A stretch of DNA of 64,000 bases from a virus (taxonomy: Duplodnaviria > Caudoviricetes), in IMG/VR virus record IMGVR_UViG_3300014208_000026, positions 160,001 through 224,000 of that record; one strand, 5' to 3'. The position numbers were made by a program, and so were the translations under genes. A model generated the notes under the pieces. The model ran no database searches. It was not told where the DNA came from and saw only the letters and a program-made list of their open reading frames with translations. Of the stretch, positions 32,542 through 50,717 are shown in pieces; position 1 is the stretch's first letter; every line of letters starts with the position of its first letter.

Positions 32542-33966
32542 TCAGCGTCGGGTCGGAGCACCCCAGTGGACTCTTTGCGGGTACTGTTGTACAGTTTTTT
32601 TGTTGCGCATTGGGTCTCTGCTAGTCGTAGGTTCTAAGCCGTTCTCCGAAACTGACCCGATCGAGGCCCCCTGGGGGTTTCCCTCAGAATCGGTGTTCGG
32701 TTCCTGCTTCACTGAGACTAGTTTCACTCCCTCCCCCGTAGGTACATAAGAGCCAGAGCTTGTCTCTCCACAGGCTTTATCCCGTTTCCTCTTCCTCTTT
32801 GCCTTAGGCACGGGAGGAAGGAGAACGGAGCACACGGGGGAACTCCCCGCAATTTTCACTAATTCCGCTAACTGAACTAAGTTAATAGCTGCGTTGTGAT
32901 CCCTGTCAGCTTCAAAACCACAAGCCTCGCAAATGAACGTCCTGTCCTTTAGGGACTGGTCTTTCTTTACCTCTCCACAGGCCGAACACCTCTTACTACT
33001 CGGAAAGAATCGGTTCGCCTTTACGACAGTTCCGCCCGCCATCCACATCTTGTATGTGATCATCCGATGCAGACTGCTAGGAGAGGCGTCGAAGAGAGCC
33101 TTTGCCAAGCAATGGTTTTTTGTCATTCCAGCAACGTTCAGCGTCTCTAACACAACCGTACTCGAACGCTTGGCTATCGCGTCCGAGACCTTATGTAGAG
33201 CGTCGTTGCGCTGACAGGCGACTTTGTAGTGCTGCTTGGCTAGCTTGTCCTTGGCCTTCTTGGAGTTCTCGGATCCTTTCTTCTTACGAGAGAGGGACTT
33301 TTGTAAAAGGCGAAGCCTCCTTTCGGATCGTTTTAGTGCTTTAGGGTTTTCGAAGACCGTTCCGTCGGATAAAACCGCGAGGGATTTGATCCCCACGTCG
33401 ACTCCCAGGGTTTCTACCCCGAGAGGGCGGGTGTGAGGTTCATCCGTCTTGATCGAGACAAACCACCTACCTGCTCTTTCCGAGACCGTCGCAGAGATAA
33501 TTCTTGCGTCGGTAGGGAAGTAGCCATGCTCTTTCAACCGGAGCCAGCCGAGTCTGGGAAGCTTGATCTTTTTCTCAGTTACGTGAATCTGACCGGTGAG
33601 CGTGAAAGATCCGATCCCGTCTTTCTTTTTCTTGAATTTAGGGTAGCCTTTTTTCTTACATTTAGGATCCCTACATCGGCGGAAATATTGGTCGAACCCA
33701 TTGTCTAAGTTCCGAAGTGCTTCCTGTACAACGCACTTCGAGACTTCATACATCCAAGAGAACCCTCCCTCCTCTTTAGGGAGCTTCTTGAGGACGTTAA
33801 GTTCCTTATGAAGATCAATGGCTGTATGGTACTTTTCACCATTCTTATAAGTCTCGTTCTTACGTCCTAGCCCCCAGTTATAGGCAACCCGAGCCGCACC
33901 TGCGTGCTGCTTGCATCCGGTGATCTGGACTTTGTTCAAATCCAGCTCTGTGAAGTAGGCTCTCAT
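32542..33966 (-). CDS. tnpB: IS607-type TnpB RNA-guided endonuclease, orphan (no tnpA in view)
   Basis: 474 aa with N-terminal HAGAARVAYNWGL and GYPKFKKK. RuvC-I LGVDVGI, RuvC-II VVLETLNV, zinc finger SSKRCSACG...FICEACG, RuvC-III DRDHNAAINL. Long C-terminal tail (ACGE...VKLVSVKQEPNT) of the kind that overlaps the omegaRNA. Confidence 0.92.
   Translation of the reverse strand: MRAYFTELDLNKVQITGCKQHAGAARVAYNWGLGRKNETYKNGEKYHTAIDLHKELNVLKKLPKEEGGFSWMYEVSKCVVQEALRNLDNGFDQYFRRCRDPKCKKKGYPKFKKKKDGIGSFTLTGQIHVTEKKIKLPRLGWLRLKEHGYFPTDARIISATVSERAGRWFVSIKTDEPHTRPLGVETLGVDVGIKSLAVLSDGTVFENPKALKRSERRLRLLQKSLSRKKKGSENSKKAKDKLAKQHYKVACQRNDALHKVSDAIAKRSSTVVLETLNVAGMTKNHCLAKALFDASPSSLHRMITYKMWMAGGTVVKANRFFPSSKRCSACGEVKKDQSLKDRTFICEACGFEADRDHNAAINLVQLAELVKIAGSSPVCSVLLPPVPKAKRKRKRDKACGETSSGSYVPTGEGVKLVSVKQEPNTDSEGNPQGASIGSVSENGLEPTTSRDPMRNKKTVQQYPQRVHWGAPTRR
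32618..32860 (-). ncRNA. Predicted TnpB omegaRNA: scaffold ending ...GTCAGTTTCGGAGAACGG at 32639, then a guide beginning CTTAGAACCTACGACTAGCAG
   Basis: Overlaps the tnpB 3' tail. The scaffold end resembles IS607 right ends and terminates in GG, the IS607 core dinucleotide. Both boundaries are approximate. Confidence 0.5.
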
Positions 33967-35274: not shown

Positions 35275-38200
35275 ATGGCAACTCCAAAGTTTCTAGGTCC
35301 CGATGGGATTCTGCGAGAAGAATTCAATTTTTCGACTACGCTTGCGTTCCGGTTCTTCTCCGGCACTACGGATGCAGATACCGTGGATATGCAAGTGTCG
35401 GTCCGCGGGGACCCTTTCGTAAGCGATGCGGATCTGATCTCGTTCGAGGGGACAACGTTTTCTATTCCTAATCCGACGGTCTATCCTGACGGGCTCCCCC
35501 TGGACGCTGGGTTGAATGAGATTCGAGTTCGGGCGGTGCTCACGAACGGTAGTGTGACTCCGGAAGCGGTCATTCGGGCCCGTTTGGTCCAGGAAAGTGA
35601 TCTCGGGATGATCGTGCTCCCGCCCACTGGCATTTCGGCGGAGAGGAAAAGTGGTCTTGTTGTCGTTACGGTAGAGGGGCTCGACGATTCTCATATCCTG
35701 GGTTACAATTTCTACGCTTCGACGCAAGAGGGCGGAGGGATTGCAGGGTACTCCAAGATCAACTCCGCTCTTGTGTCCTCCGGTGTCACGGCAGAGGAGG
35801 AAACCAGTCTCTCCTCATTGGATACTGATATCATTGTCGCTGTAGGCGGGGATTTGCTCCCTCTCGCGGATCCTCAGTATCTGAACATCCTGGGTACTCA
35901 GCAGGATCGGGAAGGTGTGGTACTGACAACTGATTTCAATGAGTCTTTGGAGATTCCAGAGACGGCACGTAAACTGAGGTTTGCGGCCACCATCAACACT
36001 GTCCGTAACGTCACGTCTTACTCGTTTACCCATAGTCGCACGGCTACGTTGCAGTCTGTTTATCCCGCGATTCCGAATAGCAGTTTCGGGACGATTGCTG
36101 AGACAGACCCTCTCTACTACGTAGCCTCTGCGGTCTATTACGATGACGTAGCCGGTGTAGAGACTGAGTCCTCCTATTCCCCCGAAGTGACCGGAGCGCC
36201 TATTGTCGTGACTTCGGCTGTGGGGGCTTTCCCGACCGTGAATCGCACGCAGATCGTGCAGGATATGTCCCTTTCGGTGTTCCGCTCAAATCCCGGACTC
36301 TCGATCGAACCTGGGTCCGTTCTTAGAGACACCGTCATGGACCCCGCTTCTGTCGAAATGGCACGAGTTCGTTTCGTCATTGACTTTATGCATCGGGCTC
36401 AGAGTCCCGCTTCGTTGCTGGCTATCGACGACCCGAATCGTACGGGGGCTTCTGTTCCTGTCAGTGCTTCTGCTTACAAGTTGGATCTGAAAAAGGCTTT
36501 CTACCTGACGGCGGATGCTGATGTACAGGCTCTCATTGATGACTCCTTTGATATCCTTGGCAACAGGTATGGTCTGACTCGTGACCCTGGCAATTATGCC
36601 CGAGGCGAGGTCACGTTCTACACCAAGTCCCGTCCGACTCGCTCCAAGACTTTCCCTGTGGGGACTCTGGTTAGTAGCGGTGTCCAATTCAGGACGACGA
36701 CTACGGCCCAGGTTACCCTATCTAACGTCGCTTCGATCTACAGTGCCTCTACGGGCAGGTATTCCGTTCGAGCTTCTATCAAGGCAACCGATCGGGGTGC
36801 CGCTGGAAATCTCACTGAAGGTCAGATCCGGAAGATCGTGACGGCAGGCTACGAAGATTTCTCCGTCACGAATGAGGGTCGAATTTCTGGAGGCACGGAG
36901 CGAGAATCCAATCTCCGTTTTGCAGAGAGAATCGGGACCGCTCTGGCTATGATCAGCGGGGACACAGAGTGGGCTTATCGCCAGACAGCAATCGGCGTTT
37001 CCAGCGTAGAAGAGGTCAAGGTTATTAGTGCCGGAGACGCTAATATGCTGCGGGACTTCGATGGTGCTATCCACCGCGGGGGGAAGGTAGACGTTTGGGT
37101 TCGAGGGAGCCAGACCGCAAGCGTGACGGACGATTTTGCCTTCTCTTACGAGATTGCAAAGGGGATGGCTTTTGCGGTTGTCGGGGATCCTCAGAACCTT
37201 ACTTTCATTGCCCTCGATAGCAATCTCTCGGTGAACAATCCAATCATTGAGGTGTTGGATATCCCTGCGTGGGGGTACGAGTTCGTGAATGCCAATACCG
37301 GCGTGGCCATGAACCTGACAGGGGTTGTGATTCAGGACTATCGGACCATCGTCCTGTCCTCGACGTACAATGACCCTGTGACCTATTATTTGACTGACGT
37401 GTTCCATGGCAGTTACCGGTATCGAACCAGTGACAGGTTCGTGTTCCCCAGACAGCCGGTGGAATCTATCGAGTCTCTGACCGGAACGGTTACGGGTGTC
37501 GTGAACTCCAGTGCCTATGCTCTGTATCGGGCGGCCTCTCCTCTCCAGCTTGGCCGTTCGGAGTGGGCGGGGGATTACCTGAAGGTTACGGATACCCAGG
37601 CAACCGGAATCACCATTCCTTCAGGGACGCCCATCACTGTTGCCAGTGAGGAGCATGTCATTCTTGCGGGGTATACGGAGTACCTGTTTGAGATTGGGGC
37701 GAACGTTCTCACCTTGGAAGTCTGGGACTCCTCCCACACTACGATGTACATCAGCCCTTATGCTGATTCCGTCAATAATGACTACACGGTCATCATGGGT
37801 ACAGACACGTCTCCTGTCGGTGTTCGGTTGACTACGGGGAGCGCCATCGTTTCGGGGTCTTCCGTTCTGTTCGATTACAGCCACGATGAGCGGTTTACGG
37901 TGCGGTATTCTTTGGATAGCATGACCCGAGAGACCCAGACTGCCTTGGATCAGAATCGGAATCTCCATGCTGACGTGTTGGCTAAGAAGGCTGTGCCGAT
38001 TCCCGTAGATTTGGGTATGACGGTGATTTTGCAGCAGAACACGGATTTGACTCCCGACAAAGCGGATACTGCTATTCGTACTGCTCTTTATAACTACGAG
38101 AATCGGTTGCGGGTGGGTCAACGACTCCGGCCTTCGGACGCTATTGGGGTTGTGGAAAAGATTACGGGTGTGTCCCATGTGCTGGTGCCGTTGACAAAAC

Positions 38201-38688
38201 TTGTTCTAACCGAGGGGGCTTTGGTACTTCGGGAGCCTCTCACTGTGGCAACTGTTGCCGACGTGTTCAAGGTTCCTTCGTGGTCCACTTCGACTGTGGA
38301 CGTCTACCTGTTGCGGTCCGAACTGGCGGCGGCAACTACGGACCGCGGAGGTCCCAGTAACGAGTATCGAAGCGTTTACCAGAACGACAACGAGCTGGAT
38401 TTGCAGGAGATGAACCCGAATCTTCAGAGCATTCCCTTGAAGAGGAAGGCTGGAAACGCCTATATTATCGGTAACGGAGGAATGACCATTCCAGGGTATA
38501 CGGGGGACACGGCCAATCGGGTATTAGTATCTGTCCCCATGGGGGACACTCCGCTGAATTACAGCTATGCGGTAACCTACATTGCGTCCGAGGGTACAGG
38601 GATGAAATCTGAGATTCGTCCTGGGCCGTTGGGGTATGTGGTGTTCCAGAACATCGAACTGGTTTTTGACGAAGAGGTGCCTGAATAA
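35275..38688 (+). CDS. Baseplate J / gp6-like wedge protein
   Basis: 1137 aa with ARGEVTF...FPVGTLV...FRT, ATDRGAAGN...GQI, VTNEGRISGGTERESN and GGKVDVWV baseplate-J motifs. Confidence 0.8.
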   Translation: MATPKFLGPDGILREEFNFSTTLAFRFFSGTTDADTVDMQVSVRGDPFVSDADLISFEGTTFSIPNPTVYPDGLPLDAGLNEIRVRAVLTNGSVTPEAVIRARLVQESDLGMIVLPPTGISAERKSGLVVVTVEGLDDSHILGYNFYASTQEGGGIAGYSKINSALVSSGVTAEEETSLSSLDTDIIVAVGGDLLPLADPQYLNILGTQQDREGVVLTTDFNESLEIPETARKLRFAATINTVRNVTSYSFTHSRTATLQSVYPAIPNSSFGTIAETDPLYYVASAVYYDDVAGVETESSYSPEVTGAPIVVTSAVGAFPTVNRTQIVQDMSLSVFRSNPGLSIEPGSVLRDTVMDPASVEMARVRFVIDFMHRAQSPASLLAIDDPNRTGASVPVSASAYKLDLKKAFYLTADADVQALIDDSFDILGNRYGLTRDPGNYARGEVTFYTKSRPTRSKTFPVGTLVSSGVQFRTTTTAQVTLSNVASIYSASTGRYSVRASIKATDRGAAGNLTEGQIRKIVTAGYEDFSVTNEGRISGGTERESNLRFAERIGTALAMISGDTEWAYRQTAIGVSSVEEVKVISAGDANMLRDFDGAIHRGGKVDVWVRGSQTASVTDDFAFSYEIAKGMAFAVVGDPQNLTFIALDSNLSVNNPIIEVLDIPAWGYEFVNANTGVAMNLTGVVIQDYRTIVLSSTYNDPVTYYLTDVFHGSYRYRTSDRFVFPRQPVESIESLTGTVTGVVNSSAYALYRAASPLQLGRSEWAGDYLKVTDTQATGITIPSGTPITVASEEHVILAGYTEYLFEIGANVLTLEVWDSSHTTMYISPYADSVNNDYTVIMGTDTSPVGVRLTTGSAIVSGSSVLFDYSHDERFTVRYSLDSMTRETQTALDQNRNLHADVLAKKAVPIPVDLGMTVILQQNTDLTPDKADTAIRTALYNYENRLRVGQRLRPSDAIGVVEKITGVSHVLVPLTKLVLTEGALVLREPLTVATVADVFKVPSWSTSTVDVYLLRSELAAATTDRGGPSNEYRSVYQNDNELDLQEMNPNLQSIPLKRKAGNAYIIGNGGMTIPGYTGDTANRVLVSVPMGDTPLNYSYAVTYIASEGTGMKSEIRPGPLGYVVFQNIELVFDEEVPE

Positions 38689-38849
38689 TGGAAACCCCGG
38701 ACGTCGAGATCTTCGTGCCGGTGCTGGAAAACGGACAATGGGAACTGTATTTGGTTAGGGAGGGGAACGGTTTGGATTTTGGGTTGGACAACACGGACCA
38801 TTTGATGGCCGAAATGTTGCGGGAGATAAGGTCATGCTCTCTGCAATGA
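38688..38849 (+). CDS. Small acidic ORF (53 aa), not in the ORF track
   Basis: METPDVEIFVPVLENGQWELYLVREGNGLDFGLDNTDHLMAEMLREIRSCSLQ. Starts in a TAATG overlap with the J-like stop. Confidence 0.5.
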   Translation: METPDVEIFVPVLENGQWELYLVREGNGLDFGLDNTDHLMAEMLREIRSCSLQ

Positions 38850-38947
38850 TCCTCAGCCAGCGGCCGTGGCAGGTTATCGCCGTGATTCTCTTGGTGCTGT
38901 TCTGTGTCGGACTTCGTGGTGGGGGCGGAAAAAATGGCCACGTCTAG
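38834..38947 (+). CDS. Small single-transmembrane ORF (37 aa), not in the ORF track
   Basis: MLSAMILSQRPWQVIAVILLVLFCVGLRGGGGKNGHV. GGAG upstream of the ATG at 38834, with an alternative ATGA-coupled start at 38846. Overlaps the next start. Confidence 0.4.
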   Translation: MLSAMILSQRPWQVIAVILLVLFCVGLRGGGGKNGHV

Positions 38948-40241
38948 CAAAATCATTCCTGGGTCTGTTGAACAGAATCCGTCGTGGGTCACGCCCAAGG
39001 GGCAGGACTACAAAGATCGGATTCAGGAACAGACCAGTCAGATCATGAGTGCTTTCATGCAGATGCTCCCGTCTAACTACGTTTCTCAGGTTACAGGGCC
39101 TTTCTACACTATGCAGTTCCAGGCCATTGCCGAACGGCTGGCCGAATTTCAAATGGTGGCTCAGGAAGTGTTCTCTGACGCCGATTACGACTTCACTCGA
39201 CCTGAGTTTCTGTACCAGATCCTTGGAACCCTGGTGTTCCCAGATATCAGTGAGGGCATTCCGCAGATTGATGGAGACGTGACCTATCGTACTTTTCTTA
39301 AGAGGATGGTGGCTTTGCTTCTCAGGGGGGCTACGAAGGAGGCTTCTGAAGAAGGGGTGCAACTGCTGACAGACCACGTTGTTAAGGTTATCGAGAAGAA
39401 CATTGCTGCTCGGGGGGATGCAAATTCGGGTTGGGGGTTTGACGACCAGTTCACTTTTGAAGTAGATATCTATGCAGACGCCAACGGGAATTTTCCGGAG
39501 GATCCGGTACAACTACAGGAGAATGCAAGGCTGGTTCTCAAGGCGCTGAAACCCGCTCATCTGCTTTACGATTTTCGTTTCGTGTTTCAGGATATTGCCA
39601 GGGCGGCTTCGGATGCTTGGTACACGGACGTCATCCCCAATCCCTATTGGGAGATGGAAGTTTTCGACTATGAGGATGCTAGGAGTTACTGGCACGGAGC
39701 CAAGAACATTATCGGAACCAACGGAGTGACTTGGACGGATAGGGGCCTGTTTTCGGACGTGACCCGAAGTTTCGCTTCAGTTCAACCCGGAGCTTCCCTC
39801 ACAATCGCAGCCGGGATTAATACCGGGACTTACAGGGTGAGAGAGGTCAGGACGTTCCCCTTGGGGGATGATAGCACTGCCCGTCCCTACACGACCGCTC
39901 CTACGGGGTTGTCTGGATGGGCAAGTGTGGAGGACGGGGCTTTTGTAGACTCTTCTCAGGATTTTTCGGCTGCGGTTGAAGGTGAAGTTCTGGTTTTTAC
40001 CGCAGGAGCCAACGCTGGATCTTATCGGTTGGGGGTTTTGTTGGGCACTCAGGGAGGACCTGTTGGGTTTGCCTCTGGACCGGCAACGCAAGTTCGACCT
40101 ACCCCGTCTATTTTGCGTCTTGAGTCTCGAATGAAGCAAGCGGGTATGGGCCAGAGATATATTGTTGAAGTGGATCGGTTGGGTAAGTCTGAAGAGAAGA
40201 CAGTGACTGGAGAAGACGTAACTTCTCCGTTTTTATCTTAG
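38934..40241 (+). CDS. Baseplate wedge gp7 / P2 gpI-like protein
   Basis: About 435 aa (ATG at 38934 preferred). YRTFLKRMVALLLRGAT and LKALKPAHLL (KPAH motif). Follows baseplate J. Confidence 0.7.
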   Translation: MATSSKIIPGSVEQNPSWVTPKGQDYKDRIQEQTSQIMSAFMQMLPSNYVSQVTGPFYTMQFQAIAERLAEFQMVAQEVFSDADYDFTRPEFLYQILGTLVFPDISEGIPQIDGDVTYRTFLKRMVALLLRGATKEASEEGVQLLTDHVVKVIEKNIAARGDANSGWGFDDQFTFEVDIYADANGNFPEDPVQLQENARLVLKALKPAHLLYDFRFVFQDIARAASDAWYTDVIPNPYWEMEVFDYEDARSYWHGAKNIIGTNGVTWTDRGLFSDVTRSFASVQPGASLTIAAGINTGTYRVREVRTFPLGDDSTARPYTTAPTGLSGWASVEDGAFVDSSQDFSAAVEGEVLVFTAGANAGSYRLGVLLGTQGGPVGFASGPATQVRPTPSILRLESRMKQAGMGQRYIVEVDRLGKSEEKTVTGEDVTSPFLS

Positions 40242-40251
40242 ATAAAATCTG

Positions 40252-40332
40252 TCAGAGCCGGATGGCCGACGCGGACAGGCCGATGGTGGCGAGTCCTGCG
40301 AGGGCGGCGATAGTGCTTCCTGAGCGGCCCAT
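40252..40332 (-). pseudogene. Truncated 26-codon gene start (MGRSGSTIAALAGLATIGLSASAIRL*)
   Basis: Has the same AGGAGGCCAGCATG initiation region as the 40833 gene and a similar N-terminus. Stops exactly where GC-rich DNA meets the backbone. Confidence 0.45.
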
Positions 40333-40341
40333 GCTGGCCTC

Positions 40342-40833
40342 CTATGCGATCTCGTACCAGAACGACTTCTTCGCGCTGGTCGTCCAGGTCTTGTCACCGA
40401 CGCCCGTGTTTGCCTCGAAGCGGTTAGATGCGGCGTTGAAGTTCACCGCCACGAAGTTGACGCCGTCGGCACTGCACCCGGCCGAGTAATTCGTCGCGAG
40501 GTGGCGCCCCGACGACGTTTCCACGCCGATGTTGCCGTTGATGCTGTCCTGGTACAGCCCGCCGAAAGGCGCTGTCTTGCGCGTGTAAAGCGCGTGCGTT
40601 CCGGCGTCGTTCGCCACCGGCACGATCTCGGTCAACGGGGTGGCAAGGCACGCCCCGCCATTGGCCGCCGCGCACAGCGCCGTGCCACCAGAATTGAGTT
40701 TCAGGGCCGCACCGCCAGGGATGGCGATGTCGAATATCGTGTAGGTCGCATGGATCGTCACCAGGATATTGTCTGCCCCGCCGCCGCCTCCAGCCGCGAT
40801 GTCCGCGGCGATCTTGCTTGCCGACTGTCCCAT
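40342..40833 (-). CDS. Cassette paralogue A (163 aa, starts MGQSASKIAADIAA)
   Basis: The true start is the ATG at 40833 with an AGGAGG RBS; the track's 41025 start is an artefactual extension. Shares AIPGG, GRxL and NxxAxxRFEA motifs with paralogues B and C. Confidence 0.7.
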   Translation of the reverse strand: MGQSASKIAADIAAGGGGGADNILVTIHATYTIFDIAIPGGAALKLNSGGTALCAAANGGACLATPLTEIVPVANDAGTHALYTRKTAPFGGLYQDSINGNIGVETSSGRHLATNYSAGCSADGVNFVAVNFNAASNRFEANTGVGDKTWTTSAKKSFWYEIA

Positions 40834-40849
40834 GCTGGCCTCCTTACGC
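40793..40849. repeat. 57-bp direct repeat, copy 1 (upstream stop + RBS + first 14 codons)
   Basis: 54/57 identical to 41289-41345. Confidence 0.9.
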
Positions 40850-41329
40850 CGTGGCGAAGTCTGCGGCGCGCGTGGCCGACGTGCTGAATGTGCGGTTCGC
40901 GCCCAGGGCCGCCTCGAACCGCGACGTGGCCTGCACGTAGTTGAGCGTCGTGTTGTCAGGGTTGGCCGCCGCGCCTGCGTCGTAGGGGATCGCGATTTGC
41001 CTCCCGGTGAAGGTCGAGATCGCAATCGTGACAGGGACGCCTGCTTGCGACAACGCGCCCGTGCTCTTGCTGATGTACACGACGCTGGACAAGGCCGACG
41101 TGTCGACGACCACCAGCAGGTCCGTAGCCCCGGCCGTGGCGAAGGCGTTGCCGCCCTGGCCGTCTACGCCGAAGCACTTCACAATGCCGGCGGCGTAATG
41201 GAGTTTCACCTGGCCGCCGACTGGGATGGCCGCGTCGAACACGGTGAACGTCGCGGGGGACGCCATCAGCGCGTTCGGCGCACTGCGGGCCGCGATGTCC
41301 GCGGCGATCTTGCTTGCAGACTGTCCCAT
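40844..41329 (-). CDS. Cassette paralogue B (161 aa, starts MGQSASKIAADIAA)
   Basis: AGGAGG RBS. First 14 residues identical to paralogue A; the body is diverged. Confidence 0.7.
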   Translation of the reverse strand: MGQSASKIAADIAARSAPNALMASPATFTVFDAAIPVGGQVKLHYAAGIVKCFGVDGQGGNAFATAGATDLLVVVDTSALSSVVYISKSTGALSQAGVPVTIAISTFTGRQIAIPYDAGAAANPDNTTLNYVQATSRFEAALGANRTFSTSATRAADFATA

Positions 41330-41345
41330 GGTGACCTCCTTACGC
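41289..41345. repeat. 57-bp direct repeat, copy 2
   Basis: 54/57 identical to 40793-40849, spaced 496 bp apart. Confidence 0.9.
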
Positions 41346-42662
41346 GAGCGGCAGGACGTACAGCCGCAGTGCCCCCGCGACGGCCGGGAGGCTCTTCAGG
41401 ACGCTCATAGCCTTGGAGGCAGTGAGATCGTAGGGCTGCGTCGCGAAGCCGTCGTTCCACCCGCGCTCACCGACGACAGCCGCAGGAATGGTCTCGGCGC
41501 CGAGCAGGATCGACGCACCACCGCCGCCAGCGGCGTCTTGCACCGTGATGGTCTCGCCGACGTTCGCGACGTTCGGCCAAAATTCGACCGACAGAAGGCG
41601 GCAGGCGTAGGAAGGCCCGGTGAAGTCGACAAATACGGGGATCGCCGAGGCCTGGATGTCGTACTCCCAGCACTCCACCACTGCATGGCGTGGGCTGCCG
41701 GCGGAGGCGATGTACTTCAGGCCGGTGTCGGCCTGCGCCTTGTCCGCGGCGGGCGTGCCGAGAATGCCGTTGACGGCGCCGTTGGCAGCCTGCGTCGGCG
41801 TCACCGACTGGCGCGGCACCTGGAACCATCCGATCGAGCCGTCGTTGGCGAAGTAGTATTCGCCGACGGGACGCCCGGAGATCGCCTCCAGCGCCATGAC
41901 GTGGTCGCCCTGCGCGGGGGTCGTCTCGGCCCACACGTCGGCGGGGGTGTCCGCGGTCAGCGTGTAGATGCGGTTGATCGTGAACCCATTGGCCGAGTTG
42001 TAGGCGATGACCCGCGTACCGACCGGCAGGCCGGGAGCGGGCTCGCCGCCCAGGACGAAGAACTTCACGGGCTGCAGGTAGGAGGCGATGGCGGCCTTCT
42101 CGCTCGTGGTGGGCAACGTGGCGTGCGTGTGGCCGGTCGCCGAATACAGCGTGTCGTAGTAGCCCTTCAGGTCGGCGACACCAACGGCAATCCAGCGGCC
42201 CGCGATGTCAGTCGGGGATACGATCCCAGGCAGTGCTTCGGCCGCCACGCTGGTTGCGTCATAGCGGTATAGATCCGCCATGGCAGCACCGTTGTTTTTG
42301 ACAAGACAGAGCATCCCTTCGCCACGGGCTGCTGCGATTATGGCTTTGAGGCCCGCAATGTCTGCGACGGGTAGGTGGATGCCCATATCTTTTGCTACTG
42401 TAATGTGGTACACACCGCCCGCGTCGGTGGCGTCATAAGTGTTGGGTGGGTCCTCTGAACCCACCGCTTCACCAAGATTGAATCTATAGAGTACGCCGGT
42501 AGACTCGACGGGGACCAGAGTTCCATCTTTGAAATTGGTTGTTGACAGTGCTTTGAGTGCAGCCACATTAGCTACGGCGGCGTGGATCAATCCTTCAAGA
42601 GCGGCTACTTGAAGAGCCAGTGCAGTGAACTGTTCCTTGGGAATGAATTGAAGATTTGCCAT
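41340..42662 (-). CDS. Probable fibre/decoration protein with a duplicated N-terminal VAxxAxLKAx motif
   Basis: 440 aa. Two repeats (VANVAALKAL...LYRF; VADIAGLKAI...LYRYDATS...GRW) of a type seen at the N-termini of phage fibres and spikes. AGGAG RBS. Confidence 0.55.
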   Translation of the reverse strand: MANLQFIPKEQFTALALQVAALEGLIHAAVANVAALKALSTTNFKDGTLVPVESTGVLYRFNLGEAVGSEDPPNTYDATDAGGVYHITVAKDMGIHLPVADIAGLKAIIAAARGEGMLCLVKNNGAAMADLYRYDATSVAAEALPGIVSPTDIAGRWIAVGVADLKGYYDTLYSATGHTHATLPTTSEKAAIASYLQPVKFFVLGGEPAPGLPVGTRVIAYNSANGFTINRIYTLTADTPADVWAETTPAQGDHVMALEAISGRPVGEYYFANDGSIGWFQVPRQSVTPTQAANGAVNGILGTPAADKAQADTGLKYIASAGSPRHAVVECWEYDIQASAIPVFVDFTGPSYACRLLSVEFWPNVANVGETITVQDAAGGGGASILLGAETIPAAVVGERGWNDGFATQPYDLTASKAMSVLKSLPAVAGALRLYVLPLA

Positions 42663-42678
42663 GGTATTCTCCTCTTAA

Positions 42679-43344
42679 CTAGCGAATGTCATAAAGGAAA
42701 ACGGCGTTTGCATCGGTGTCGATGTCAACGTTCGTCCCTGGAACGAACGTTGCTTCTGCACGGTGCGAAGCGGCTGCAACGTAATTGCACGCTACACCGC
42801 CCGCAGCCGCGTAAGCGATGCAGAGGGCTTTGCCATTCAGCATTCTCACGAGAACGTCATTGGTGCCAAAAGCCCCGGTCGTGTTGTGATGAAGTAATTT
42901 AGACCGCAGGGTTCCGGTGTTGTTACAGAAAACCTGTTCGCCCACAACGGCGGAATCAATTACGTAGGCTTTGTCCAGACCGAGGAGTCCGGACCACAGA
43001 TCATCTGCGGCTCCAATGGCACTGATTAGGACAGGACCCGACGCGGAGGGGGTCACATACAGAGCGGCCCCGCCTGGAACTGCGGCATGGGTCACACGGA
43101 GCGTCTCAGCCGTGAAAAAACGGGCGGTGAGCATTCCATGGTCGATCATCCCTTTGATCGTGCCGTTGTTGTATGACTCAGCCACCAGAGAGGTATAGAT
43201 CAGGGTGATTGTCTGTCCCGGGTCAATGTACATCGGACCAGGGCGGTTTTGGGGACGAACGTTCAGACTTCCAATATCGGGGAGAGTCAACTGGGCGTTT
43301 GGGGTACCCGTATGGGTAAGTTGAATTCGGATTCCGGTAGCCAT
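42679..43344 (-). CDS. Cassette paralogue C: ~80-aa N-terminal domain fused to the A/B-type domain
   Basis: 221 aa. C-terminal AVPGGAAL...NGKALCIAYAA...NYVAAASHRAEA...FLYDIR aligns by eye with paralogues A and B. First gene after the tandem promoters. Confidence 0.6.
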   Translation of the reverse strand: MATGIRIQLTHTGTPNAQLTLPDIGSLNVRPQNRPGPMYIDPGQTITLIYTSLVAESYNNGTIKGMIDHGMLTARFFTAETLRVTHAAVPGGAALYVTPSASGPVLISAIGAADDLWSGLLGLDKAYVIDSAVVGEQVFCNNTGTLRSKLLHHNTTGAFGTNDVLVRMLNGKALCIAYAAAGGVACNYVAAASHRAEATFVPGTNVDIDTDANAVFLYDIR

Positions 43345-43370
43345 TCTATTTCTCCTTTGAGGAAGTGTTT

Positions 43371-43449
43371 TCCTACTTAGAGGAACCCTATAGAGAGAAA
43401 ACCGAACCTCTATCTCCTTACCTAAAGGAACCCTATAGAGGGAAAACCG
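43371..43449 (-). promoter_or_regulatory. Two tandem late-promoter-like motifs (45-bp period) facing the antisense operon
   Basis: Minus strand reads CGGTTTTCCCT-CTATAG-N12-TAAGG (43449-43415) and CGGTTTTCTCT-CTATAG-N12-TAGGA (43404-43371). Confidence 0.6.
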
Positions 43450-43456
43450 GAGCCCA

Positions 43457-43490
43457 CGGTATTATGTCTATGGGAAGTCCTCTTGTAGGA
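43457..43490 (+). promoter_or_regulatory. Late-promoter-like motif, divergent copy (CGGTATTATGT-CTATGG-N12-TAGGA)
   Basis: Same spacing, 19 nt upstream of the ATG at 43509. Confidence 0.55.
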
Positions 43491-43508
43491 TCTCCAGAGG
43501 CATTTCAC

Positions 43509-45941
43509 ATGGCTGTGAACATAAAGACCACTATTCTTCGTGGGGTTTCTCCCGTAGGAGATCCTCTTCAGACCGGAAGTCGACCTAAGGCGTCAGAGAC
43601 TTTTGTGGTTCGGCCTGGAGATGTAATTGAAGCAGAGGAGGCTTCCGCTACCGTAGTAAACTGGACTCTGGAAGATGCTCCTATTACTTTGGATGGGACC
43701 CGTTCTTCTGCTGTTCCTTCTCCCGTTTCTGGAGCGTCCACTTCTTTCATTCTCGATTTCGAGGGGGCATACCTCTTGAAGGCAACAAACCCTCTGAACG
43801 TCAATGATAACCAGACCGTTCGTATTCGGGTGGATTCTCTTACAGCAGGGCTATCTTTTGTCGCTTGGGGAGAACAGAACACAGGTTCTTTGCTGGTTCC
43901 TTTCGATATCGGGGCTCACGGATGGTCTGAGACCATAAGTCTCGGTTTCGAAAAGACATTGGCTATTTTGCGAAGATCGAAGGTGACTGGGAGAGTGGTT
44001 CGAGTAGATGCTAATCGTGGGTTCGATTACACGCAGTCTCCTGATGACCCTGCCTTCACGAACACCTACCCCGGGATTCCTGTTTACGAAGCAGGGGTGT
44101 GGACAACTTTGCCTCATTCCGAACTCACCGCCCCGTCTTCGGGGGCGGGGGATTTTGGGTCGGTGCAACAAGCCATCAATTGGATTGCCGCCTCTTCTTA
44201 TGTCCCCTCAGAGGAGTACCCCTGGGTTGTCGAAGTTGCGGACGGGATATATGAAGAGGACGTGGCTTTCCAGCCTTTCATCCATGTTGTATCTGCTCGC
44301 TCCCCGATGCAGAATCCTCTGAATCCAGGCTTGTTGTCCTTCGGAAAATGCGTGACCCTTCGTGGCAATCATCTTTTTGTGGGGACCTCTGCGACAGATG
44401 CAGTGTTCCTGTCTGGGCTTTTCCTGGACAACTACGGTATCGACAACGCTTTTCCAGTTCTGAAAGCCAGTGGGGGCCAAGGAGTTCTGTGCATTCATGA
44501 CACCGTTATCGACCAGAGTTTCGTTTCCGGAGTCAGGGGGGATACCGTTTCTGTTGAAGGGCCTTACACCCTGCTATTCGTAGAGGCAGGGGTCTACAAC
44601 CGGACCACTAATGTTACAAGCGGGCCTTTGAGAGTCGAGGGAGGCGCTAGTCCTGCTTCCGTGGTGAGTCGTCGTTCTTCTTTCATCGGTTTCGGTGGGA
44701 GTATAGACCTCAATCTCGTTTCTAAAGTTGGGGGGGGTATTTTCTATTTCTCGGACAGCAGCATCAGAGCCGGTTTAGGGGGCGCCCTCCCCGCCGTTCA
44801 GATAATAGGGGAACTCCAACTGGTTATTTCTGAGACAGTGAATTCTGGGGGTCCCGTGCTTGTCTTTAACCCCGACGATTCTGGAGGGGGGCTCAGCCAA
44901 ACGTGTTTATTGCGGGGGTCTGAGATAGACGGGGATATCCGGATCAACGACGGGAATACTGGAGGAGTCTGTCAGGCTCTCGTTTCGTCTTCTTCTTTTG
45001 GTGCCCTTACAGGAACGTCGGTTACCCACGGCATTCTTACAGTTATAGGCGGGACAAATGGGCTGTCTGTAGCTTTTGATCCCGCTACTTCCGGGATGGC
45101 CGCAAATACAGTGCAGGCGGCTCTTTTAGAACTACATACCTCCAAGATGGCTTTAGTTCCGACAGCTACTGAAAATAATTTAGCTACATTTAACGCTGCT
45201 GGACAAGTAAAAGACGGGGGTGCTTTACCAACCAATGCCGCGACAGTTACCGTTGTGGATACAGCTAGCACGACTTGCTGGCTGACACTTTTTGAGGCTG
45301 CCACAGGGAATTGTGCGGCTAAGACCGATGCAGCCCTCAAGTACAATGCCGCTACGGGTGAACTTGAGGCTACTAGTTTCAAAGGACCCCTAACGGGCAA
45401 CGCCTCCTCAGCGACTACTGCTTCAGCATGTAGTGGAAATGCAGTGACAGCTACTGCTGCGGGAACTATTTCGGGAGTCGCGGATACTGCTAGTGCCACT
45501 TGTTGGTTGGCACTGTTCGAGGCCGCTACAGGAACTTGTGCAGCTAAGACTGACGGTTCGTTGCTTTACAATGCCTCGACAGCTCTGCTCAGTATTGCCA
45601 AATTGTACTTGTCCTCGATGGTTTCTGCCATGGAGGTCGACGCGGGAGTTTCTGGCGCTAACAAGACTATTGACTGGAACTCCGGTAATAACCAGAAGGT
45701 TACGTTTGACAATTCCTGTATTTTCGCTTTTACGGCTCCCTCTACGGGAGTAGCGCACCTGACACTTCGTATGATTCAACCTGTGGCTGGAGGGAAAACG
45801 GTGACTTGGCCAGCTACGGTCAAGTGGAGTGGTGGAACGCAGCCTACTTGGGACACAACTGCCAGTAGAGAGAACTACGCCTTTTTTTACTGGAATGGGA
45901 GTTTTTATGTGGGATCTGGTGTCACTAATATAACGCCGTAG
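43509..45941 (+). CDS. Fibre/tailspike-like protein: Ig-like N-terminus, beta-helix-like core, duplicated 33-aa repeat, conserved phage fibre C-terminal domain
   Basis: About 810 aa. The start was moved from 43365 because that extension runs through the promoter repeats. Contains GDFGSVQQAI...VADGIYEE (beta-helix cap) and a C-terminal IDWNSGNNQKVT...TVTWPATVKWSGGTQPT. Confidence 0.6.
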   Translation: MAVNIKTTILRGVSPVGDPLQTGSRPKASETFVVRPGDVIEAEEASATVVNWTLEDAPITLDGTRSSAVPSPVSGASTSFILDFEGAYLLKATNPLNVNDNQTVRIRVDSLTAGLSFVAWGEQNTGSLLVPFDIGAHGWSETISLGFEKTLAILRRSKVTGRVVRVDANRGFDYTQSPDDPAFTNTYPGIPVYEAGVWTTLPHSELTAPSSGAGDFGSVQQAINWIAASSYVPSEEYPWVVEVADGIYEEDVAFQPFIHVVSARSPMQNPLNPGLLSFGKCVTLRGNHLFVGTSATDAVFLSGLFLDNYGIDNAFPVLKASGGQGVLCIHDTVIDQSFVSGVRGDTVSVEGPYTLLFVEAGVYNRTTNVTSGPLRVEGGASPASVVSRRSSFIGFGGSIDLNLVSKVGGGIFYFSDSSIRAGLGGALPAVQIIGELQLVISETVNSGGPVLVFNPDDSGGGLSQTCLLRGSEIDGDIRINDGNTGGVCQALVSSSSFGALTGTSVTHGILTVIGGTNGLSVAFDPATSGMAANTVQAALLELHTSKMALVPTATENNLATFNAAGQVKDGGALPTNAATVTVVDTASTTCWLTLFEAATGNCAAKTDAALKYNAATGELEATSFKGPLTGNASSATTASACSGNAVTATAAGTISGVADTASATCWLALFEAATGTCAAKTDGSLLYNASTALLSIAKLYLSSMVSAMEVDAGVSGANKTIDWNSGNNQKVTFDNSCIFAFTAPSTGVAHLTLRMIQPVAGGKTVTWPATVKWSGGTQPTWDTTASRENYAFFYWNGSFYVGSGVTNITP

Positions 45942-45952
45942 GAGTATTCTGA

Positions 45953-47062
45953 ATGGCTACTAGACTTGTTCCAGCAACGTATGCATCGCCTCAGATAGCA
46001 CTTGCTGCATGTGCTGCCTGGGACACGATTCTCGTTACGTCTGGATCATATACGCTTCAGAACTTGTCTAGAAGTATATACGTAATATGGGAGTGGACGA
46101 ACGATGTCTCGATAGGCTTGACCGCTGTAGGGTTACAAGGTGCATACGCGCAGAACTGGCGGCCGGCGGCTGGCAGTGCGAGCAAGCGCATGTCCTTGGC
46201 TAGTGGTGCATCTATTCACAGGCAGAGCGCCCCGTCTTCGAGTAACGAGAGTACGTGGACCAATGTGGATTTCACTATTTCTGCTGACCAGCCGGCACTC
46301 TGGTGTACCGGGCCTTGGGCAAGCACGATAAATGTCAATAACTGCACGTTTACGCAAACGGTAGCCGGGGTTGCGTATGCCACAAGGATCGGTATAGAGC
46401 TTTTTGGTAGTGGGACGTATGTAAATGCTAATAACTGCACGTTTACCAAATGTGGTTCCGGGGTTCATGTCGAAAATACATGGTCATGGGCAAAGACATA
46501 CCGGTGTAAGTTTATAGGGTGTTACTGCACGCACTCGGCGATAGCCGCCGCGGATCAGTATTCATCGCTATGGAGCACACTCGACGTTGCGTATTCTGGC
46601 AGCGGCGGCACCGCTCAGTATGGAATGTACTATAATGGCGGCGATTCTGCGCGTCCGACGTACATTGCTAAAAGGTGTACGTGGGATGTAACAGCGGGCG
46701 CTTTTTACAACATTGGCGGAGTCAGATCTACAGTGCAGGGGTGCTGGGCCGACGCAATGACGCGCACGGGAGCGGGTGGCACCTGGGACCACAATGGGAG
46801 CCGAGTATACACCGGAACACCCGGAACGGGGGACGTTACAACGCTAGCAGACCCAGGATTCATGAATAAAGCGGGTAACGTCTACACCCTGGCATTGTCT
46901 ACCTGTGTTCTTGTTGGAGCGGGCGTAGATATCTCGGAAGTAACCGACCACGCAGGTTTAGCAATACCGAATTCTCACGGAACCTATAGTATTGGCGCAT
47001 ACGAGTTCTGGGGATCATGGGGTGGCGGGGACACAGGCGTAGTCGTAGGCATAACCTTCTGA
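45953..47062 (+). CDS. Right-handed parallel beta-helix (pectin-lyase-like) protein
   Basis: 369 aa. Starts VPATYASPQIALAACAAWDTILVTSGSY, has repeated NNCTF turns, and ends DPGF...Y.L...LVGAG...SIGAYEF. AT-richer DNA. Confidence 0.65.
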   Translation: MATRLVPATYASPQIALAACAAWDTILVTSGSYTLQNLSRSIYVIWEWTNDVSIGLTAVGLQGAYAQNWRPAAGSASKRMSLASGASIHRQSAPSSSNESTWTNVDFTISADQPALWCTGPWASTINVNNCTFTQTVAGVAYATRIGIELFGSGTYVNANNCTFTKCGSGVHVENTWSWAKTYRCKFIGCYCTHSAIAAADQYSSLWSTLDVAYSGSGGTAQYGMYYNGGDSARPTYIAKRCTWDVTAGAFYNIGGVRSTVQGCWADAMTRTGAGGTWDHNGSRVYTGTPGTGDVTTLADPGFMNKAGNVYTLALSTCVLVGAGVDISEVTDHAGLAIPNSHGTYSIGAYEFWGSWGGGDTGVVVGITF

Positions 47063-47090
47063 GGCAGTTTGATTGTGAGGGAAAAATAAA

Positions 47091-50000
47091 TTGAACCCCC
47101 GACGGGTAATCTACACTCAGTACGGCCCCCTCACCAAAGGTTGGGGAGACGGCACTCCTGCGACCGTCGAAGACGTCCATGTCTATATTGATACGGGGGG
47201 CGGACCAGTTGAGGTCACGGTTTCGGAAGTGAATCCCTACGAGGGCAAGATCATTCTGGCCCTCCCTGTTCCCCCGAACCCTGTTTCCGTTACAGTCGAC
47301 TATAAGTGGATGAACAATCCGCAAGAGTCTCTTCGGTTGAACACCCTCGGGCTCACGCTCAACAAATGGGGTTCTGCTAATCATTTGTCTTCCCCCAGCC
47401 ACGGATCCCGACACTCTTTCAACGTTACTCTTGGCCCTGGAAATCGGGCTCGCCGGACTCCTTTCCTCGTCGGGCACCGTTTCCTTGGTCTGGAAAGGGC
47501 ATACACTTCGGCTCTAAATAGCCCGACTACCTTACGTTTGAATGCCCCCGATGCACGGCGCCTGAAGTATGACCCGATCGGTTTCTCTATTCCCTATGAA
47601 TGCATCACCACTCCGCAATCCGAAGGTTGGGCTCTTCTCGGGGACGATACGGGGTCGGTTGTCAATGGAAATGGAACCTACACTTTGGTCGATGCTACGA
47701 CCGGTTCTTACGGCCACGGGGAGGGAGCCTGTTACACCCAGGGAGTTGATCTTTCCATTCCCGCTACGGTGTATTTGGCAGGGCGCCTTCGTGTGACGGA
47801 TTACACCTTGAATGGGGTGTTCTCCGGCTTGGGTTTAGGGGTGCATGACAACAACAGGCTCTACCTCGCAGGGCTCCTTGAGGTGAATGGGCTGAAGCAT
47901 GTAGGTATTCTCCGGAACGTCGGACGTCCTTACGAGGTGGATTCCTGGATTCTAGGGCCGACCACAACCGCCACGATTCTCACCACTACGACAATGACGA
48001 TCCCTGCCGCCAGCACTCCCGTGTCCTTGGCACCCGGGAATCGGTTCCAGGTTCTGTCAGGGGCCCAGGTCGGGGTCTATACTATCGCCTCTATTGTCCA
48101 TCAGACTACGGGTGTGACAACTATCACTGTCGTGTCTCCGTTCCCTGACGACCCGACCAAATGGGATAACTCCCATGCCGCTGTCATTTTCGAGGCTCTC
48201 TGGGATACCAACCCTATGACCTATAGGATGGTCGTGGACACGAGCACTCACACGGCCCAACTGTTTATCAGCGGGGACGTGTCGGGCACCGTAGTTGACC
48301 TAACGGCTGCGGACGTCCAGGATTTGGCTATTACCCCCAAGACGGTCCTCATGCTGACCACGACCGGTAGGGGTCAGATTTTCTGGGGGTCTTTGAGTCG
48401 AGAGGCCACCAGCACCAGTATTTGGTCTTTCTATCGGGCGGGTTCAGTGCCTGCCGCTAACAGATTCCAAGCTCAGAATCTGGTTATAGACACAGAAATG
48501 ACGGTGACTCCGGAGTATGACACCGATGAATGGTTCGTGACTCAGGATTTCGGGTACTCCGCAATTCTGGGTGGGGAGATGCTGTTGAAATCCTCGGCCG
48601 CTGATACGGCCTTGGATTTCACCTTTGGCTATGGAAGAACCGAGCCCTTCATTACCGAAAGAACCAACCTGAATCTCACGACCAGCCTGAAGGTGGACAG
48701 CGGGACTCTCGGGGTCGGGGATGCTCTTATTGTGTTGCAGGACTCCAAACGGCAGGTGAATTTAGGTACGGTTCAGTACCTGGAAGACCCTCTGGCTACG
48801 CCTTACCGCCAGTTTCTCGATTTGCCGCATGTATCGATGTCAGGTCTCTGGCTGCCTGACGAGGAGAACTGGATTCAGTCCGCCGTGTTCGATATGGCCG
48901 AAGAGGTTCGAGGACACGACTTTTTCTCTACTCAGACAGTGGGTGAGGAAGGGGGGCTGTACTACAAGAACCTGTTTTCCCTGCCCACTTGGGATGAGGG
49001 GGGCAGAATCATCGAGAGCCGTCTAGCGGTTCTCAGCTACATTGCTAACGGGCTCGGGGAGACGGGGATTTATTTCGGGGGGCGTGTCAGCCATCCCGGG
49101 GGTGGCGGGGGTGGTATGTGGGGGGCTCCCTTCGGAGGAGGCCCCTTTGGTGGTGTGCCTTTTGGAGGGTTGGGTCCCATTCCTGGAGTTTGCAGAGGTG
49201 TAAACCTCACCCTGCGGGCTTCTGTAGGGGGGGCTTCGCCGAAGGTGCTGGTACTCGATGAAGCTAACACTCTCATCCAGGACTACGATTTCGATTGGAC
49301 AGACGGGGGGGATCATACCTATCGTCTTATCGCGGACCCCATAGCCCTCACTGTAACTTTGGCGATCGATGGGGTTGTGTATCTGCCTGTGATGAACCTG
49401 CTGGCTTTTGATACCGTGACCACCAATGACCTGTGTTGGTTCGGTTCTTGGACTCCCGCGGTAGATACCGCTTCGGATGTTCGCTGGACCGATATGGCCT
49501 ATGCAGTTTTGGCCCCCTCCTCCGCAAAACGGACTTTTGGTGTGTATGTTTCCGGGGACTGGAACGATATCGATTCTTGGCGTGTCCCTCGAATTGATTC
49601 ATTCGATGTACCTAACTCAGATGTTTCAGCGGACGTCAAACCGATCGATTGGAATAGCTGGACCGACGTGATGGTCAACCGCGATCCGGTCTGGGGTGTC
49701 TCTGTTGTATTCCCGTTGGAAGCTCCACCTCCTGGTTGGACAGGAGACCCTTCGGACTTCGCAACCTATCTGACCAACCCGAAAGCAGGTTGGATCAACG
49801 TAGAGCAGGAAGAGCTTCCGAGGGTTACGGCTACGTTCGGTTACGTGAAGTTCGGGGCTCTGAGTTCAGATTCCATTACCCAGCAGTGGTGGGATTACCT
49901 TAGGTATCGGATTTTCAACCGGCCCGTTGTTACCTCCCTGCCTTCGTCCAAGATGGTGCTGAATAGGTACAACGCGATCAGTAGCGGAGAACGAGGGACA

Positions 50001-50717
50001 GATACTACGGTCGAGTCCGTCGCTGTGACCTCTATGTCCAGTACCCTGGTTTCTTTAATTCCGGCGGATATGAGGGCGGACAGGGTGTTCGTGGTTTCCG
50101 AAGGGGGGATTCCGATCTCAGTGGATTACTGGACGTTCGACGTGGCGTCGCAGTCAATCACCATCGACTCCGAACACCCGCTGTCAGGAGACCACGTTCC
50201 TGTAACAGTCAGTTTCTCTCCTGGAAAGCCGATCACGGAAACTTATCTCAAGGGGCAACCTCTCCTGGATAGCCTCAACCTGTTAAATGCGGGCACTCCC
50301 CCGTTCGTCATGAGCCAAATGGGGCAGGCTACGCCCGTAGTAGTTACGTCTCCGGTTGATTTCGTGGATTTCGTCGACACTCCCGGGTCTTTGTACGATT
50401 ACGTCAAGAATTTCTCGGTGAATAATGTCGGTTTACAGAACCTGCTCGCGGATGCTGAGGACGGTCGTGTGCCTCATGATATGGCGTTTGAGGGGCCACT
50501 GTTCCGAGAGGAGCCCCTTTTGCCCCGAGAGGTGGAGTTGGAGGGGGTTCCTATTCTGTTTGCCAGCGGGGGTTCTTTCGAGGACGGGGCCTGGAATCTT
50601 GCTAAATCGGCTCCGACTTGGAAACAGGGGATGAACCGCGGGCTGGTAACTGTTCGTCGGTTGACGATTCCGACTCCAAGTATCGAGGTCTTTTGGGACG
50701 GCACCCAGGTAGAATAG
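47091..50717 (+). CDS. Large virion protein with repeated lectin/ConA-like beta-sandwich domains
   Basis: 1208 aa, TTG start with GAGG. Repeated xxGW...Y and DWTDGGDHTYRL / WDTNPMTYRM motifs. Confidence 0.5.
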   Translation: MNPRRVIYTQYGPLTKGWGDGTPATVEDVHVYIDTGGGPVEVTVSEVNPYEGKIILALPVPPNPVSVTVDYKWMNNPQESLRLNTLGLTLNKWGSANHLSSPSHGSRHSFNVTLGPGNRARRTPFLVGHRFLGLERAYTSALNSPTTLRLNAPDARRLKYDPIGFSIPYECITTPQSEGWALLGDDTGSVVNGNGTYTLVDATTGSYGHGEGACYTQGVDLSIPATVYLAGRLRVTDYTLNGVFSGLGLGVHDNNRLYLAGLLEVNGLKHVGILRNVGRPYEVDSWILGPTTTATILTTTTMTIPAASTPVSLAPGNRFQVLSGAQVGVYTIASIVHQTTGVTTITVVSPFPDDPTKWDNSHAAVIFEALWDTNPMTYRMVVDTSTHTAQLFISGDVSGTVVDLTAADVQDLAITPKTVLMLTTTGRGQIFWGSLSREATSTSIWSFYRAGSVPAANRFQAQNLVIDTEMTVTPEYDTDEWFVTQDFGYSAILGGEMLLKSSAADTALDFTFGYGRTEPFITERTNLNLTTSLKVDSGTLGVGDALIVLQDSKRQVNLGTVQYLEDPLATPYRQFLDLPHVSMSGLWLPDEENWIQSAVFDMAEEVRGHDFFSTQTVGEEGGLYYKNLFSLPTWDEGGRIIESRLAVLSYIANGLGETGIYFGGRVSHPGGGGGGMWGAPFGGGPFGGVPFGGLGPIPGVCRGVNLTLRASVGGASPKVLVLDEANTLIQDYDFDWTDGGDHTYRLIADPIALTVTLAIDGVVYLPVMNLLAFDTVTTNDLCWFGSWTPAVDTASDVRWTDMAYAVLAPSSAKRTFGVYVSGDWNDIDSWRVPRIDSFDVPNSDVSADVKPIDWNSWTDVMVNRDPVWGVSVVFPLEAPPPGWTGDPSDFATYLTNPKAGWINVEQEELPRVTATFGYVKFGALSSDSITQQWWDYLRYRIFNRPVVTSLPSSKMVLNRYNAISSGERGTDTTVESVAVTSMSSTLVSLIPADMRADRVFVVSEGGIPISVDYWTFDVASQSITIDSEHPLSGDHVPVTVSFSPGKPITETYLKGQPLLDSLNLLNAGTPPFVMSQMGQATPVVVTSPVDFVDFVDTPGSLYDYVKNFSVNNVGLQNLLADAEDGRVPHDMAFEGPLFREEPLLPREVELEGVPILFASGGSFEDGAWNLAKSAPTWKQGMNRGLVTVRRLTIPTPSIEVFWDGTQVE

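Follow-up and report, generated by a model that had tools for sequence, protein, structure and literature searches.

A minus-strand cassette carrying a new domain family in the baseplate cluster of a huge phage: a candidate accessory fibre module

The DNA analysed here (the window) is a stretch of 64,000 nucleotides (nt), bases 160001–224000 of a 257-kb contig from a groundwater metagenome (IMG/VR record IMGVR_UViG_3300014208_000026, Caudoviricetes). The genome, that of a huge phage, includes a baseplate cluster of the contractile-tail type, and nearly all long open reading frames (ORFs) of the region lie on the plus strand. Within the cluster, a compact minus-strand operon (40252–43344) is found between a 445-amino-acid (aa) gene (38904–40241) and an 810-aa fibre gene (43509–45941), and comprises, in this order, gene C, a 440-aa fibre-like gene (F440; 41340–42662), genes B and A, and a 26-codon ORF. 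We propose, with a probability of roughly 0.55, that this antisense operon is a lineage-specific accessory module of virion fibres, with a putative role in receptor binding. Among the observations behind the proposal, A, B, and C share a domain that in other phages lies at fibre ends, A and B start with the same peptide, and the distal part of the operon has a composition foreign to the phage.

The preliminary description of this DNA took A, B, and C for three diverged copies of one domain of ~150 aa, and a profile built from outside sequences only upholds this homology. A and B are paralogs (39% identity, E-value 3e-23), as is still evident when the leader peptide at their N-termini is left out (shuffle z-score 19.5; gene bodies 35% identical). 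The pairwise comparisons of C with A and with B are weak (z 4.1 and 2.8, respectively), and so is that of A and B together with C alone in hhalign (E 0.029). A search of 1.84 billion representatives with a profile of the A, B, and C domain identified 18 further proteins, the whole domain being covered in each. A core profile restricted to nine mutually obvious outside relatives, with A, B, and C excluded, gave 63.8 bits to C, 36.5 to B, and 29.7 to A, and about zero to F440 and to the 26-aa peptide, while a profile of all 18 outside members gave 78.0 bits to B, 75.3 to C, and 65.5 to A. Because these outside-only profiles score all three proteins, A, B, and C belong to one family, in which C groups with the core members and A and B with P0010, P0012, P0015, P0016, and P0022. 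The genome contains exactly three copies of the domain. Word-based homolog searches with B and C returned only self matches, and tblastn with B and with P0018 against 50,697 phage records gave no match.

The shared domain, hereafter the tip domain, is ~145 aa long and consists of three internal repeats of ~45 aa. The three segments of the core alignment match one another in hhalign (E 1.2e-6, 3.6e-5, and 8.5e-7 for core members), and the sequences of A, B, and C fall into the alignment columns of these repeat-bearing members. We found no family for it in Pfam, PHROG, or NCBIfam and no relative in the PDB by sequence profile; A, B, C, and F440 had no Pfam match at E-values up to 1 and no Mtd_N, mtd_2nd, or C-type lectin domain. 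An AlphaFold2 model of B made from a 22-sequence alignment is all beta and confident (predicted local distance difference test [pLDDT] 86.3, predicted template modelling score [pTM] 0.80), with the leader as a low-confidence helix at residues 5–14. Foldseek searches with this model found no solved structure in the PDB (best E 1.1) and no match in BFVD or the AlphaFold DB clusters. The domain family is new, and its model is without a solved counterpart in these searches. The one good match was to a cluster that the ESM Atlas labels "phage major tropism determinant" (template modelling [TM] score 0.73 over 145 residues), all members of which contain PF21916. The fold of A from a three-sequence alignment was unusable (pLDDT 32), and the Atlas models of A and C were poor.

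The match to the tropism determinant (Mtd) cluster agrees with the sequence of one family member. This protein, P0024 (488 aa), contains PF21916 mtd_2nd (E 5.8e-24), matches phrog_11262 "tail protein", and resembles Mtd of Bordetella phage BPP-1 (tblastn to mtd, E 2e-7); its tip domain is inserted ahead of a C-terminal segment that looks C-type-lectin-like by eye and has no Pfam lectin match. In P0016, the tip domain comes after a collagen-like Gly-X-Y stalk, in P0022 and a 183-aa protein of the L009 contig after a fibre-type motif, and in small family proteins after some 30–45 residues. Family genes close tail modules, after tail proteins of 1840–2310 aa, and one lies directly after a protein judged Baseplate-J-like by eye alone. 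From these architectures and gene positions, the tip domain is a fibre-end module of phages, located at the distal end of fibres or inserted in Mtd-like receptor-binding proteins (RBPs), and such a position would suit a role in ligand binding. Placing A, B, and C at the virion surface, as the preliminary description did, thus fits the fibre or receptor-binding settings of the family in other phages. In the Mtd-like P0013, P0020, and P0024, the insertion lies just before a C-terminal segment resembling the variable region of diversity-generating retroelement targets. No template repeat of such an element was detected in 39500–44000, and A, B, and C are the only copies of the domain in the genome.

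A and B were described at the outset as stand-alone domains with the same N-terminal peptide, and this was confirmed: both start with MGQSASKIAADIAA, identical at 14 of 14 positions, compared with 35% identity in the bodies. The leader does not recur elsewhere in the genome. Two unrelated contigs show comparable arrangements. On L009, two tandem family genes both start with MG[TS]VPYEP and share 14 identical nt of stop codon and ribosome site. On L008, an F440-like fibre protein and an A/B-like protein have 31 of 37 N-terminal residues in common, only 14 of the 31 identical residues being encoded by the same codon; these mostly different codons indicate selection on the peptide rather than recent gene conversion. 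By analogy, we favour a role of the leader at the protein level, in which it would serve as an attachment or co-assembly peptide. Because the leader appears to have arrived with an imported block (see below), its partner would most simply be found within that block, in the distal part of F440 or in A and B themselves. A complex prediction for three copies of F440 residues 190–440 with B returned no verdict (score 0.00, without controls) and carries no weight either way.

Alternatively, A and B could be assembly chaperones of the Tfa or T4 gp38 type rather than virion parts, their common N-terminus binding the fibre tip during folding. Tfa-type chaperones combine a conserved fibre-binding part with a variable part. 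A and B are small, come immediately after a fibre gene in the operon, and were transferred together with the distal part of that gene. However, fibre and Mtd-like proteins of other phages contain the same domain as an integral part, C-terminal or inserted, and A and B match no chaperone or gp38 adhesin family in Pfam, PHROG, or NCBIfam, which makes this explanation unlikely.

The origin of the cassette was approached through its surroundings. Homologs of the flanking baseplate genes led to 33 related loci; the 445-aa gene used as a single protein found no relatives, and a two-sequence alignment then did. A, B, C, F440, and the tip domain are absent from all 33. In the seven closest relatives (L016, L017, L018, L020, L021, L022, and L028), an 810-like gene follows the 445-like gene on the plus strand; in the three of these whose contigs reach far enough, a longer 1208-like gene comes next, again on the plus strand. 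The island of the closest relatives contains plus-strand genes only. Of the available relatives, in the comparison of the 33 loci, none shares the antisense operon, which is thus specific to this phage. More distantly related loci have the 445-like gene next to the 1208-like gene or fused to it, and in LR745208.1 a single 1763-aa ORF (11938–17229 of L004) spans both flanking genes, only three residues separating the stretches that align to them. Either one large baseplate gene was split by the island at a domain border, or the LR745208.1 gene is a fusion. In the present phage, the two halves are separated by 6.85 kb of fibre genes, and the 1208-aa gene (47091–50717) restarts at a TTG codon.

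Composition divides the operon in two. The GC content at third codon positions (GC3) of C and of the first ~150 codons of F440 is close to that of the rest of the phage (0.48–0.60), and that of the remainder of F440, B, and A is far higher (table 1) than the 0.4–0.65 of the neighbourhood, the step falling at F440 codons ~150–160, inside a "shoulder" domain. Residues 29–192 of F440 share 79% identity with the N-terminal region of P0007, which is 758 aa long, comes from a siphovirus-like contig of 68.7% GC, and has the shoulder domain conserved; further relatives of this region, P0008 and P0009, come from phage contigs of 67–69% GC. All contigs with tip-domain family or F440-like genes have a GC content of 64–69%. 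The L008 contig moreover has the same gene set, in the row F440-like fibre gene, 250-aa gene, and A/B-like gene (P0012), and its 432-aa fibre protein is homologous to F440 along the length (score 89, z 6.6, 0 of 500 shuffles). The 26-codon ORF at the end of the operon was considered as a third copy of the A/B leader, and was rejected as such: it is not significantly similar to the leader (z 1.2–1.5) and matches the start of a different gene family, that of the L008 250-aa protein (13 of 26 residues identical, z 7.7–10, 0 of 5000 shuffles). It is headed by a third, 61% identical copy of the B and A gene junctions (40292–40348). We infer that the distal 2 kb of the operon (F440 from codon ~150, B, A, and the stub) were imported as one block from a high-GC phage, and that the stub probably marks the end of this block, where a fourth gene was cut. 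The absence of the cassette from the related loci and the foreign GC3 of the distal block support an accessory module that is exchanged horizontally, in keeping with the swappable modules of the preliminary description.

With an import of this kind, B and A could be mere passengers of the replacement of the F440 distal part, without a role, and their leader identity inherited from the donor. The block does end in a truncated gene, the leader is matched nowhere else in the genome, and B and A are missing from all related loci examined. Against this, both ORFs are intact with strong ribosome sites overlapping the preceding stops, the leader has been held at 14 of 14 residues while the bodies diverged to 35% identity, and contigs of two additional studies (2022 and 2024; groundwater and freshwater metagenomes) carry the sequence unchanged. 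We therefore regard the passenger explanation as improbable. The identical contigs cover 40911–41177 and other pieces of 37000–48000, so that the phage with the cassette is not confined to one sample.

The preliminary description gave the junctions ahead of B and A as 54/57 identical in DNA although the bodies are highly diverged, which was reproduced (95% identity, 496 bp apart; two spacer bases and a synonymous change in a Ser codon account for the mismatches), and read them as recombination handles by which cassettes are deleted, amplified, or swapped in an expandable array. In favour of this reading, the two junctions are near-identical direct repeats, degenerate leader codons are the same in A and B at 11 of 13 positions as against 26 of 50 (52%) at identical body residues, and the L009 tandem pair likewise has an identical stop and ribosome-site stretch. 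On the other side, most of the nucleotide identity is explained by the identical peptide, the very high GC3 (0.83–0.88), and the common arrangement of stop codon and ribosome site; the L008 common leader differs at most synonymous sites; the sole traceable exchange maps inside F440 and not at a junction; and a repeat of 57 bp, three of them mismatched, is short for homologous recombination to proceed efficiently. Across 37000–48000, contigs from three public runs had no joints, insertions, or deletions, contigs being unable to show rare variants. RNA folds of the three junctions were no more stable than shuffles (z +1.2, −0.1, and +0.75), a 6-bp hairpin in the leader codons results from the palindromic coding of A-A-D-I-A-A, and Rfam had no match in 39800–43700. 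No inverted repeats flank the cassette in 39500–44000, which makes an invertible segment unlikely. The handle function is thus not supported and, in our judgement, quite improbable; the repeat is better seen as a by-product of the stop codon, the ribosome site, and GC3-biased leader codons than as a recombination device. It is highly improbable that the leader is an address or cleavage tag for capsid loading (Lys/Arg-x-Ala-Ala/Ser sites), as it contains one matching tetrapeptide (K-I-A-A) but lies within the imported GC-rich block rather than in native sequence, is confined to this cassette, and precedes a domain that is a fibre-end module in other phages.

Several points weigh against the operon as a fibre module. 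Presence in the virion and mutual binding of A, B, C, and F440 are themselves things that we infer. We read F440 as the likely fibre or shoulder protein of the set, from its position and a weak homology, and its distal half has no close relatives; its Atlas feature matches are all to phage fibre-type clusters and all below trust level. Homologs of its shoulder adjoin putative capsid genes in two contigs, and the fibre could be head-associated in some phages. Five other family contexts have no common leader, the leader codon identity exceeds background modestly (binomial p 0.016, Fisher p 0.03), and some gene conversion is possible. Finally, the His-Asp motif of the outside core family is not kept in A, B, and C, and because of this loss no binding site can be named. 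The shoulder homologs in question (4021–6297 of L001 and 1984–3864 of L002) lie two genes after a gene of ~310–330 aa, a putative capsid gene of these siphovirus-like contigs of 67–69% GC, and such a place in the genome would suit head fibres or decoration proteins better than tail fibres.

The accessory fibre module that we prefer could have arisen in two steps. An antisense fibre operon would have been inserted between the 445-aa and 810-aa genes of the baseplate cluster, and a high-GC phage would later have supplied a single block in place of its distal 2 kb, through recombination within the conserved F440 shoulder. The leader would act as a short attachment or co-assembly helix fixing two alternative small knobs to one site, most economically on the co-imported distal part of F440, and the phage would gain extra binding specificities.

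Table 1. Features of the cassette and its surroundings (window coordinates).
Feature	Position	Strand	Description
Gene C	42679–43344	−	221 aa; N-terminal extension and one triple-repeat tip domain; GC3 0.59, phage-like
F440, codons 1 to ~150	42213–42662	−	Coiled-coil-like N-terminus and first part of the shoulder domain; GC3 0.35–0.65
F440, codons ~150–440	41340–42212	−	Distal part of the fibre-like protein; GC3 0.8–1.0, compositionally foreign
Gene B	40844–41329	−	161 aa; 14-residue leader and triple-repeat tip domain; GC3 0.88
Gene A	40342–40833	−	163 aa; 14-residue leader, Gly5 linker, triple-repeat tip domain; GC3 0.83
26-codon stub	40252–40332	−	Begins MGRSGS; truncated gene start
Junction copy 1	41289–41345	−	Last F440 codon, TAA overlapping GGAGG, spacer, ATG and 14 leader codons of B
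Junction copy 2	40793–40849	−	Equivalent elements between B and A
Tandem 31-nt repeats	43374–43404, 43419–43449 (region 43373–43449)	−	Divergent intergenic region
Fibre island	40242–47090	both	6.85 kb between the 445-aa and 1208-aa baseplate-cluster genes

The minus-strand operon and its place in a baseplate/fibre cluster were reproduced with the ORFs and coordinates first reported, and the neighbours include a Baseplate_J protein (PF04865, E 4.9e-22), a weak match to a sheath initiator, and a tail-fibre protein matching phrog_6942 and phrog_9017. C is fused to an N-terminal domain as had been stated, this extension being ~66–70 aa long and not ~80 aa. For A, a start at TTG 41025 was rejected; the true start is the ATG at 40833. 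In the downstream operon genes, GGAGG overlaps the preceding stop codon and the gene begins 6 nt after it, whereas C has an AAGGAG site 7 nt ahead of its ATG.

Upstream of C, the tandem repeats lie 45 nt apart and hold one exact and one near copy of a motif, CTATAG followed 8–13 nt later by RTAG, both directed toward C; the exact copy (CTATAG-N-RTAG, minus strand) extends from 43393 to 29 nt upstream of the C start codon. A related copy faces the opposite way, toward the 810-aa gene. The motif occurs 16 times in the genome, where 3.7 occurrences are expected, and most copies lie 5–29 nt upstream of a same-strand ORF of at least 100 aa. It is promoter-like, of a phage type, and may direct and time the expression of the operon. 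The 14-nt repeat core, GGAACCCTATAGAG, has no further occurrence in the 257-kb contig.

Besides the antisense cassette, the island contains two plus-strand fibre or spike genes (43509–45941 and 45953–47062). The 810-aa product of the first has only its N-terminal ~320 residues in common with the gene in the equivalent place of the seven closest relatives (28–32% identity), and the remainder differs, the usual combination of a conserved anchor and a variable binding part. Outside the island, a TnpB gene (32542–33966) between 291-aa and 361-aa genes is absent from this place in the 24 related loci that reach the site; in one relative, L043, a 41%-identical tnpB is found elsewhere, between the 1208-like and 214-like genes.

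The hosts that a phage can infect are set by its receptor-binding modules, and in uncultivated huge phages these are almost entirely unannotated. The analysis delimits a family of phage domains that has a confident model (pLDDT 86) and occurs at fibre ends in at least four protein architectures, and it traces a probable import of a fibre module into the baseplate cluster of a huge phage. Mosaic fibres and docking peptides are already established, and it is the domain family that is new. Recurring N-terminal peptides may amount to a small attachment code for very small binding proteins, possibly useful in modular fibre engineering of laboratory phages. It is also conceivable, if doubtful, that the triple-repeat domain is a new fold forming a minimal, self-contained receptor-binding knob, that A and B are the smallest plug-in RBPs known, and that the set is a mobile host-range kit. 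If so, a docking helix of ~10 residues and one knob of ~145 residues would suffice, several being carried per fibre, and the set would move among phages unrelated to one another (siphovirus-like contigs, Mtd-bearing phages, and a huge myovirus-like phage).

In mosaic tail fibres such as lambda stf/tfa, P2 H/G, and Mu S/U, the distal part is swapped together with downstream accessory genes. The present cassette is similar in that recombination appears to have occurred inside a conserved proximal fibre domain and that the distal part and the small genes form one block, but it has no invertible segment, and its downstream genes carry a fibre-end domain and do not belong to a known chaperone family. 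The likeness to BPP-1 Mtd and Mtd-like RBPs lies in the tip domain inserted in Mtd-like proteins and in the match of the B model (TM 0.73), whereas A, B, and C lack Mtd_N, mtd_2nd, the lectin part, and the variable-region repeat, the inserted domain here standing alone. As for the gp38 adhesin at the gp37 tip of T2 and T6 (Trojet et al. 2011, PMC3157838), it too is encoded by a small gene just downstream of the distal fibre gene. It attaches by a conserved N-terminal part, binds with a variable one, and is exchanged along with the fibre tip. However, no sequence or fold relation exists between them, and gp38 is a single gene product with glycine-rich motifs, compared with two three-repeat beta paralogs here.

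A close parallel is with phages that carry several RBPs attached by docking peptides (K1-5/K1E/SP6, G7C, Klebsiella KP32, KP34, Menlow, and PhiK64-1; Latka et al. 2019, PMC6872550). In K1-5/SP6-like and Klebsiella phages, conserved N-terminal peptides of 7–11 residues dock secondary RBPs (PMC6872550), and an interaction of this kind is reported as experimentally validated in PMC13352976. Those systems likewise have RBPs side by side, a short conserved N-terminal peptide (7–11 residues or longer) on otherwise dissimilar proteins, and horizontal exchange of modules; here, at least two co-encoded RBP-like proteins with a common N-terminal peptide are found in A and B, with parallels in L008 and L009. 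They differ in that their RBPs are depolymerase spikes of 600–1200 aa, whereas the present proteins are ~160 aa long with a non-enzymatic triple-repeat domain, and in that the peptide is here on two paralogs within one phage. As for a T4gp10-like branching or adapter domain on the primary RBP, F440, C, and the neighbouring genes had no Pfam match to one, and the one sign of it is a sub-threshold Atlas feature match of F440 to PF07880 (score 0.79). The initial impression that the array resembles no named system is thus right for the domain and not for the design, which matches that of the multi-RBP phages (PMC6872550). The general design is known from these phages, and docking by the leader of A and B, for which the comparison with L008 and L009 provides support, is plausible.

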